The notes under the pieces: generated by a model
The model's input: the letters and a program-made list of their open reading frames with translations, nothing else
What the model was told of the DNA's origin: nothing
Databases searched by the model: none
Virus record (IMG/VR): IMGVR_UViG_3300035698_021428
From: a virus
Length of the DNA stretch: 49,956 bases
Direction: 5' to 3' (one strand)
Shown: piece after piece, positions 48,233 through 48,622 of the stretch
Layout: each line of letters opens with the position of its first letter
Numbering within the stretch: the first letter of the stretch is position 1
Made by a program: the position numbers and the translations under genes

Positions 48233-48622
48233 ATGGGATTCACATAGGGCCAAAATAAAAATCAGACCAACTACGTCTACGTTCTTTGTAGACGAGATCT
48301 GTCACCGTCAGCACAGGTCGTGCAGAGCGGACACGCTCTCATTGAGGCAACAAAGACATTTGCGCCTCCATAGGACGAACACCCACATCTTGTAGTTTGC
48401 GGTATGCGAAATGAAGCGCGATTATTGCGCGCTGTTCAATCGCTCGACGAGGCTGGCATTCGCTATAGCCTTTTTCGCGAACCCGATCAAAATAACGAAG
48501 CTACCGCTCTAGCCACAGAACCCATCTGCGGCGAACGGCGATCGTTCTTTAAACGGTTTCATCTCTTGAATCCGAGTAATAATTCTGCGCAGTCACAAAA
48601 TAAGGAGACCAGTAATGAGTAA
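48233..48622 (+). CDS. Pth2-family peptidyl-tRNA hydrolase-like gene containing two in-frame TAG codons (48245-48247, 48371-48373)
   Basis: Perfect SD aaggag 7 nt upstream of ATG 48233; M-G-F-T-TAG-GQNKNQTNYVYVLCRRDLSPSAQVVQSGHALIEATKTFAPP-TAG-DEHPHLVVCGMRNEARLLRAVQSLDEAGIRYSLFREPD...; matches recalled Pth2 blocks V.VVR.DL....K.AAQ..HA and GQPKVVLK...EL..L...A...GL......DAG. Confidence 0.65.

Follow-up and report, generated by a model that had tools for sequence, protein, structure and literature searches.

For canonical genes encoding Pth2-type peptidyl-tRNA hydrolases (PF01981), neither an early in-frame stop codon nor a neighbouring suppressor tRNA gene has been described. PTH2 has already been noted in jumbo phages, where a role in ribosome rescue was suggested and in-frame stops and suppressor tRNAs were not mentioned for the PTH2 genes concerned (Iyer et al., PMC7824862). 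Here, we analyse a PTH2-like gene with two in-frame amber (TAG) codons in a 49,956-nucleotide stretch of viral DNA (IMG/VR record IMGVR_UViG_3300035698_021428), which will be referred to as the window; the gene and its relatives will be referred to as the window family. Judged from the sequences compared, the amber-dependent layout predicted for this gene is a widespread module of standard-code phages and bacterial chromosomes and is not peculiar to the window genome.

The layout recalls phages with genetic code 15 or code 4, in which a phage suppressor tRNA likewise enables the expression of genes with in-frame stops, and for which a translational switch has been proposed. In those phages, recoding affects many late, structural or lysis genes and the stop codon is abandoned as a terminator, whereas the window family is a single, non-structural gene family in which the stop stands at codon 3-5 and TAG still terminates other genes. 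The phage code-change module was described as a suppressor tRNA, an aminoacyl-tRNA synthetase together with a release factor in a study that does not mention a PTH2-like gene and in which the word "hydrolase" has 0 occurrences (Borges et al., bioRxiv 10.1101/2021.08.26.457843). Suppressor tRNAs of the same kind, tRNA(CUA) or tRNA(UCA), are also carried as orphans by the standard-code jumbo phages XacN1, Atu_ph07, phiKp24 and ME3. The authors of the XacN1 study sought a target for its two tRNA(CUA) genes and did not find one (PMC5852040). No target is reported in the papers on the other orphan-suppressor jumbo phages either. For many phages of this kind, the PTH2-like family provides one that is conserved; in XacN1, the PTH2-like protein is present in an ungated, fused form.

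Early peculiarities of the mRNA are also found in bacterial translation factor genes: prfB, encoding release factor 2, has an in-frame UGA at codon 26, a +1 frameshift and an internal Shine-Dalgarno (SD) sequence, and infC, encoding IF3, has an AUU start. There, as in the window family, a conserved early "defect" of the mRNA ties the synthesis of a translation-related factor to the activity linked with it. Unlike prfB, which relies on the +1 frameshift, the window family stays in frame 0 in all loci and needs an adjacent tRNA gene, and product feedback of the kind seen in prfB is putative for the window family. Separate descriptions exist of PTH2 in jumbo phages, of suppressor tRNAs without a target and of the code-change modules of phages. 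Full-text searches revealed none of a PTH2-like gene that is gated by a stop and accompanied by a suppressor tRNA, coverage of the literature being incomplete, so that an earlier description is possible.

Anatomy and fold of the PTH2-like gene

The PTH2-like gene (48233..48622, + strand) comprises 129 codons, two of which are in-frame TAGs, and ends in TAA. An SD sequence, AAGGAG (48221..48226, +), precedes the leader ATG; the first-pass annotation, made from the sequence alone, had placed this start and this motif correctly, and its spacing of 7 nt has to be amended to 6 nt. The leader, ATG GGA TTC ACA TAG (M-G-F-T-amber; 48233..48247, +), puts four sense codons before the first stop and will be referred to as the gate. 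The first TAG (codon 5) lies at 48245-48247, the second (codon 47) at 48371-48373, and, as had been claimed, the frame is broken by these two codons alone, with no TAA or TGA before the terminal TAA at 48620-48622. The two tRNA(CUA) genes that had been placed 3-6 kb upstream were found by ARAGORN on the same (+) strand, suppressor tRNA(CUA) #1 (42649..42720) 5.5 kb and suppressor tRNA(CUA) #2 (45505..45577) 2.7 kb upstream of the PTH2-like gene, the latter with a normal anticodon loop, CU-CUA-AA. Overall, ARAGORN detected 13 tRNA genes and one transfer-messenger RNA (tmRNA) gene in the window, every one on the + strand.

We then compared the product, with each TAG read as any residue, with known families. 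The translation across both TAGs, which the first-pass annotation had proposed for a hidden Markov model (HMM) search, matched PF01981 over amino acids 16-98, spanning codon 47, with E=4e-4 and 21.0 bits, a borderline score under the gathering cut-off of 23 bits, and matched PHROG 1866 over amino acids 8-102. The PF01981 cut-off was passed by the homologues P0001, P0003, P0026 and Xoo-sp13_327 (23.3-29.5 bits), and the family profile matched the solved Pth2 structure of M. jannaschii (2zv3) with E=4.6e-6. The structure was modelled with AlphaFold (AF2) for P0001, a homologue 78% identical to the window protein, at a predicted local distance difference test (pLDDT) value of 85, and the top 14 structures in a Foldseek search of the PDB with this model all belonged to the Pth2 superfamily (prob 1.00, TM 0.64-0.74). 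We conclude from the model that the predicted fold of the window gene product is the Pth2 alpha/beta fold and that the resemblance is real though, for the window copy, marginal by sequence.

The window family has the same alpha/beta fold and strand order as Pth2 (MJ0051, 2zv3; AF2095, 3erj; Bit1, 1q7s; SsoPth2, 1xty), and both have the V-R-x-D-L ... (A/V)-Q-x-x-H-A block. The family departs from Pth2 in three places: the GKGK loop falls short by 2 residues, with its second Lys aligned to a conserved Gln (profile alignment, 2zv3/24bt); an invariant F-R-E-P-D stands where Pth2 has the R-D-A-G motif, which by alignment places Glu at the Asp position; and the next loop is 4 residues shorter. We take the catalytic residues of S. 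solfataricus Pth2 to be K18, the Lys of the GKGK loop, and D86, the Asp of DAG. Because the GKGK lysine loop is absent and Glu replaces the DAG Asp, a peptidyl-tRNA hydrolase activity of the window protein is plausible and no firmer than that. The earlier match to Pth2 is therefore upheld for the fold and the V-R-x-D-L block and fails at the GKGK loop and the DAG Asp, and the designation of the gene as a peptidyl-tRNA hydrolase gene keeps its fold with a putative activity.

Relatives of the window protein are common in large phages. A tblastn search of GenBank phages gave matches in 39+ jumbo phages that continue straight through codon 47, among them Xanthomonas phages XacN1 and Xoo-sp13, Stenotrophomonas phages CM1 and RAS14, Acinetobacter phage ME3, GAP32, CBB, BF and RaK2 as well as Erwinia and Yersinia jumbo phages and one 595-kb uncultured phage. 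An exhaustive profile search returned 2013 cluster representatives at E<=1e-10 and the family is therefore large.

The early stop codon and the neighbouring suppressor tRNA

A scan of IMG/VR with a single sequence found no relatives; an alignment query was used instead and yielded 189, and the 80 loci examined from these gave 69 distinct domain sequences. An early TAG is present in 49 of the 69 (and in 3 more that have an incidental downstream ATG), an early TGA in 3 (L031, L035 and L048) and a leader followed by TAA in 0 of 69. An ordinary ATG start without a leader stop is seen in 6/69 and a C-terminal fusion to another domain in 4/69. A second scan added 24 loci with the same leader-stop pattern, and single-sequence scans aimed at more TGA-type members revealed none besides those already known. 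Across the family the leader follows the pattern M-x(1-3)-TAG, rarely longer, mostly with 2-4 codons ahead of the stop, and its codons vary (MT, ML, MS, MAH, MTH, MGFT, MPDT and others) while the stop is constant. An SD-like motif lies 5' of the leader ATG in no fewer than 44 of the 55 homologous loci, most of the others having an SD before a more proximal ATG. A purine (A or G) directly follows the early stop in 55 of 57 cases; in E. coli, a purine 3' of the amber codon favours its suppression. Two plain-ATG members have peculiarities of their own: L161 (~6001-6240) has an internal TAG (LVYL#VSDE) and adjoins a tRNA(CUA) gene, and L162 (~6001-6300) has a tRNA(UUA) ochre suppressor gene 1.5 kb downstream.

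The same layout occurs in the cultured phages GAP32 (ATG GCA CAA TAG) and ME3 (ATG ACT TAG) and in LR756511 (ATG ACT CAC TAG), the sole plausible ATG being followed by the TAG after two to three codons. In the window, GAP32 and LR756511, the interval from the early TAG to the conserved Y-x-Y-x-x-V-R-x-D-L block contains no ATG, GTG or TTG. In ME3, an in-frame GTG inside the block was taken as the start by annotators, by which the block is clipped, and in GAP32 the annotated start is placed further inside the block. Accordingly, isolate genomes in GenBank mis-annotate the family, GAP32_397 and ME3_195 being truncated and the gene being uncalled in BF, fHe-Yen9 and the pEa_SNUABM phages, and entries of the family in a large protein database begin truncated at the conserved block. 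Such N-terminal truncation by gene callers would be expected if the early stop is real.

The second TAG is a trait of fewer members. In the P0001 model, the codon 47 site falls within a surface loop (residues 43-51; DSSP "-") that connects helix 1 to strand 2, and the TAG directly precedes the E-H-P-H-L-V-V strand. Ten distinct sequences have TAG in this column (the window, L006, L009, L010, L014, L015, L018, L019, L024 and L032), and the alignment of homologues that had been suggested for this codon shows D, S, P, G or Q in the remaining members; the Q, seen in L013 and L022, gives a mere hint of the inserted amino acid. Both TAGs are at positions that tolerate any residue, a disordered N terminus and a surface loop. 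Residue identity is unconstrained at both positions, and sensing therefore fits better than coding.

The pattern extends to bacterial chromosomes. Scanning one genome per GTDB species, we found seven loci, all in metagenome-assembled genomes (MAGs) of Planctomycetes, six from Pirellulaceae and one from Frigoriglobus. The leader is MGFT-TAG in all five Pirellulaceae loci with a visible start, L095 being cut by a contig edge, and MPAPFA-TAG in Frigoriglobus. The window has its MGFT-TAG leader in common with L006 and L009 and also with L092-L094, L096 and L097 from the Pirellulaceae MAGs. In five MAG loci, a tRNA(CUA) gene lies ~0.5 kb downstream; the contigs of L096 and L097 end before reaching it. 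The flanks consist of ordinary cellular genes (WD40, LRR, DUF1348, TatD, VWA/Tad, DUF1501 and enoyl-CoA hydratase), and two metagenome contigs with the homologues P0012 and P0006 have a similar bacterial context. Locus L098 again combines leader-TAG with a downstream tRNA(CUA). We conclude that these loci are not phage genomes, although they might be small integrated elements. That an amber suppressor tRNA(CUA) is stably carried by Pirellulaceae/Gemmataceae-like bacteria (L091-L098) is unusual in itself.

Next, we considered the tRNA genes around the 69 loci. A suppressor tRNA gene lies within 8 kb in 50 of them, on the same strand in all 50 and with a median separation of 945 nt; it lies within 1 kb in 25 loci and is the sole tRNA present in 22. 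CUA is the commonest anticodon in the locus neighbourhoods (52/302). In ME3, an annotated tRNA with anticodon CTA lies 450 nt upstream of the PTH2-like gene, and L006, whose protein is 72% identical to that of the window, likewise has two tRNA(CUA) genes upstream. Further, the anticodon follows the stop: the TGA-leader loci have a tRNA(UCA) gene (-2.6 kb in L031, -339 nt in L035 and -140 nt in L048) and no tRNA(CUA), and a tRNA(UCA) is the sole suppressor at a TAG-leader locus in 0 cases. In a neighbour-joining tree, which was built on ~90 residues and is indicative only, these three loci fall in three different clades, each beside TAG/CUA relatives. This suggests that codon and anticodon were co-switched repeatedly, and the co-variation of stop and anticodon is the strongest evidence that the early stop would be decoded by the neighbouring tRNA.

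The suppressor tRNAs associated with the family are diverse, ordinary class-I cloverleaves. The ARAGORN label "tRNA-Pyl" is given to every CUA anticodon; among ~30 window open reading frames (ORFs) scanned there was no match to pyl genes, no full pyl search having been made. A nearest-neighbour comparison of the window tRNA(CUA) genes with 290 phage tRNAs was uninformative as to isotype, the best identities being 0.69-0.75 and spread over several isotypes.

Proposed mechanism and rival explanations

We propose that ribosomes would initiate normally at the SD-ATG leader and that, at codon 5 and in the window's clade also at codon 47, charged tRNA(CUA) would compete with release factor 1. When the suppressor is absent, only the tetrapeptide would be made, and, when it is present, the full enzyme. 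Because the full enzyme would need the suppressor, its amount would report the level of suppression; the real SD-ATG, the matched stop, the lack of an alternative start, the conservation of the arrangement in very distant lineages and the use of the same codon as a terminator elsewhere in these genomes imply that the protein would be made only in proportion to suppressor versus release factor activity. We regard suppressor-gated expression of the PTH2-like gene as very probable, and the first-pass idea of a translational switch operated by amber suppression is strongly supported by the comparative data, namely the conserved stop and the match between stop and anticodon. What the sequences show is the anatomy of the gene, its conservation, its linkage and the co-variation of stop and anticodon. 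Once made, the PTH2-fold enzyme, together with the partner protein described below, might hydrolyse the ester on the suppressor tRNA, whether aminoacyl-, N-blocked aminoacyl- or peptidyl-tRNA(CUA), which would close a negative-feedback loop and clamp suppression to what can be tolerated by a cell and genome in which TAG still serves as a stop. Such a governor is favoured because the protein keeps to suppressor tRNAs even when ungated, because the fold is that of a tRNA-ester hydrolase, because the host cells of the module already have Pth1 and because known early-recoding sensors (prfB and infC) are negative-feedback devices. We put forward a negative-feedback role of the PTH2-like protein tentatively, and the self-limiting "suppressor-tRNA governor" in its full form, a portable cassette of two or three parts with suppressor tRNA, stop-gated PTH2-fold tRNA esterase and new-fold partner, is somewhat doubtful. 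Taken whole, our best explanation, which brings together a portable module, a stop-gated enzyme and a feedback governor, seems likely.

Several points weigh against this explanation. Eleven loci with a leader and TAG have no suppressor tRNA within 8 kb; their suppressor could lie in another part of the genome, an arrangement seen in XacN1, which has its suppressors in the terminal repeats. Plain-ATG members still adjoin a tRNA(CUA) gene (L046, L049, L075, L085, L152, L159 and others), and the protein therefore does not need gating to do its job. With its ~90 residues, the neighbour-joining tree provides weak support for three independent switches to TGA. The family lacks the GKGK loop and so may not hydrolyse peptidyl-tRNA at all. 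Read-through and the enzymatic activity are predictions from sequence, and the direction in which any feedback would run is wholly conjectural. Finally, regions of the ~500-kb phage genome beyond the window could be recoded.

The main rival explanation keeps the same gating and turns the feedback into feed-forward clean-up, the protein acting as a general peptidyl-tRNA hydrolase or ribosome-rescue helper against the damage done by read-through. We consider this rather unlikely, and equally so the consequences that it would have to clear, namely translation running on into 3' ends, ribosomes that stall and short peptidyl-tRNAs that drop off. The Pth2 fold, the tmRNA encoded in the window, the presence of some members (e.g. 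that of RaK2) in ordinary tRNA clusters without a suppressor and the ribosome-rescue role proposed for jumbo-phage PTH2 (Iyer et al., PMC7824862) would all suit a helper of this kind, but the tight same-strand pairing with suppressor tRNAs specifically argues for a dedicated relationship, the suppressor is often the sole tRNA in 16 kb, which also applies to bacterial chromosomes, where Pth1 is already present, and the catalytic lysine loop of Pth2 is missing. It is also improbable that the gene is just one of many in a genome using code 15 (TAG = Gln), throughout or in blocks. Large phages are well known to recode with suppressor tRNAs, the window has two tRNA(CUA) genes, two relatives have Q in the second-TAG column, and the code analysis of this phage covers 50 kb out of a roughly 500-kb genome. 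However, no internal TAG occurs in the long window genes (384-778 aa), and TAG terminates 15-19 of the ~70 window ORFs. Reading TAG as sense lengthens window ORFs less than the TGA or TAA controls do, and the same control applied to the 16-kb neighbourhood of each locus gave no TAG-specific gain in nearly all. Further, the same early TAG is found in bacterial chromosomes and in cultured phages with the standard code, such as ME3, whose complete genome uses TAA 217, TGA 49 and TAG 33 times as stops. A scan of ME3 for ATG followed by 1-4 codons, TAG and an ORF of at least 80 codons gave four cases, of which only the PTH2-like gene has no downstream ATG. By these analyses, the window itself is not TAG-recoded.

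A third possibility, that the leader is an independent mini-ORF of 2-4 codons and that the PTH2-like domain is translated without any suppressor, by termination-reinitiation or from a non-canonical start, we hold to be very unlikely. Very short ORFs beside a gene resembling that of peptidyl-tRNA hydrolase do bring to mind the bar minigenes of lambda, and the GTG inside the conserved block of ME3 is annotated as a start. The identity of the stop, however, tracks the neighbouring anticodon and is never TAA, the interval from the stop to the conserved block lacks ATG, GTG and TTG in most members, and reinitiation could not bypass the conserved second TAG inside the domain in the window's clade. 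Two in-frame stops within a 130-codon ORF might also be thought to mark a pseudogene or an error of sequencing or assembly. The probability of this is negligible, since both TAG positions recur in independent assemblies (L006, L009, L010, L014, L015 and others) and the early TAG is present in >50 distinct sequences, including finished isolate genomes. Relatives with the downstream half lost, which would have pointed to a pseudogene, are not what the alignment revealed: the homologues keep a conserved protein sequence 3' of the stops. A chance in-frame TAG layout is excluded by the matches across codon 47 and by the early TAG in dozens of distant homologues.

Partner protein, neighbouring genes and significance

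A gene for a 180-aa partner protein (49057..49599, +) follows the PTH2-like gene in the window; its motifs are K-W-G-Y-x-P-C, W-x-R-W-x-R-K-x-x-x-N-R and Y-x-x-A-R-x-P. In the bacterial loci, a partner of ~120 aa with the motifs (S/G)(K/R)-W-G-(F/Y)-x-P-C, W-x-R-W-x-R-K-x-P-x-N-R and Y-x-x-A-R-x-P lies directly 3' of the PTH2-like gene, and partner and PTH2-like domain are fused in two lineages, Pirellulaceae and phage locus L048. The partner HMM detected 25 loci, exclusively in the window's part of the tree. The partner is the conserved third component of the module in the window's clade, with a confidently new fold and no known function. PADLOC and NCBIfam had no model matching the PTH2-like protein, the partner or an upstream 165-aa protein.

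Other neighbours of the gene in the window are less clearly part of the module. Membership is doubtful for a 145-aa Glu/Lys-rich ORF (48615..49052, +) between the PTH2-like and partner genes, which is missing from L006, where the two genes abut. It is uncertain for a RelA/SpoT-type HD_4 protein of the hydrolase-only kind (45580..46179, +), which begins 3 nt past tRNA(CUA) #2, and for two further neighbours of the tRNA(CUA) genes, a SpoU-family RNA 2'-O-methyltransferase (42988-43659, +) and a histidine phosphatase (43646-44377, +). The HD_4 protein, the SpoU methylase and the histidine phosphatase are syntenic in L006 and L009 and may form a set of tRNA-end or alarmone-related enzymes.

The fusion form of the PTH2-like protein occurs at L002 (2467-3309; Xoo-sp13_327), L003 (2464-3303; XacN1 ORF364), L012, L017 and L025. 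It has ~280 aa, with the PTH2-like domain as the C-terminal half and an N-terminal region of ~180 aa containing an H-D-I-G-K-P motif. The fusion-form loci have neither an early stop nor a nearby suppressor tRNA, and their neighbours include GatB/YqeY-like and NAD synthetase genes. A search of Pfam with the N-terminal domain of the Xoo-sp13 and XacN1 fusions gave no match; a relationship of this domain to the window HD_4 protein was considered and rejected, there being no similarity between the two.

Several other features of the window were noted, where the long ORFs are all on the + strand. A 778-aa protein (23791-26127) contains major-vault-protein (MVP) repeats and an MVP shoulder domain (Pfam E=5e-25), and the product of 31080-32729 has a PARP catalytic domain and a WGR domain. 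A weak PHO4 match (18579-19538), a porin O/P (28757-30064) and a PhoD phosphatase (35848-38157) form a phosphate-acquisition-like cluster and are probably auxiliary metabolic genes. The tmRNA gene (26303-26655) encodes the tag peptide ANSNPLRIAA. As regards the TAG-terminated ORFs of the window, backup stops are not nearer to these genes (Mann-Whitney p=0.96). A 70-aa ORF with a TAG end (46166-46378) is in frame with a 146-aa ORF (46388-46828), the ATG of which is 3 codons past the TAG, so that amber suppression would fuse both; this may be a coincidence. Another TAG-ending ORF (97-618) lies in the same frame before the catalytic domain of a class II aminoacyl-tRNA synthetase of the D/K/N type (649-1803), and these are not a read-through pair because TAA or TGA follows one codon after the TAG.

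For annotation, the findings mean that many family members are truncated or missed by standard gene callers. With this family, orphan suppressor tRNAs gain a first conserved, adjacent target, and the question of their target becomes directly testable in cultured systems, namely ME3, GAP32, CBB, BF and the Erwinia and Yersinia jumbo phages. The module offers a natural read-out of how suppressor tRNA competes with release factor, and natural suppressor modules with built-in expression logic are possible parts for synthetic biology. Its presence in Planctomycetes chromosomes implies that bacteria can stably carry amber suppressor tRNAs together with a dedicated control or partner system, and, since it is found in genomes without a code change, the module bears on how the reassignment of stop codons begins. 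If the proposed governor is true, it would let phages and bacteria bear an active stop-codon suppressor in a standard-code cell by clamping it; it would then be an enabling first step to a change of the genetic code and would give orphan suppressor tRNAs the function and the target that have long been sought for them.

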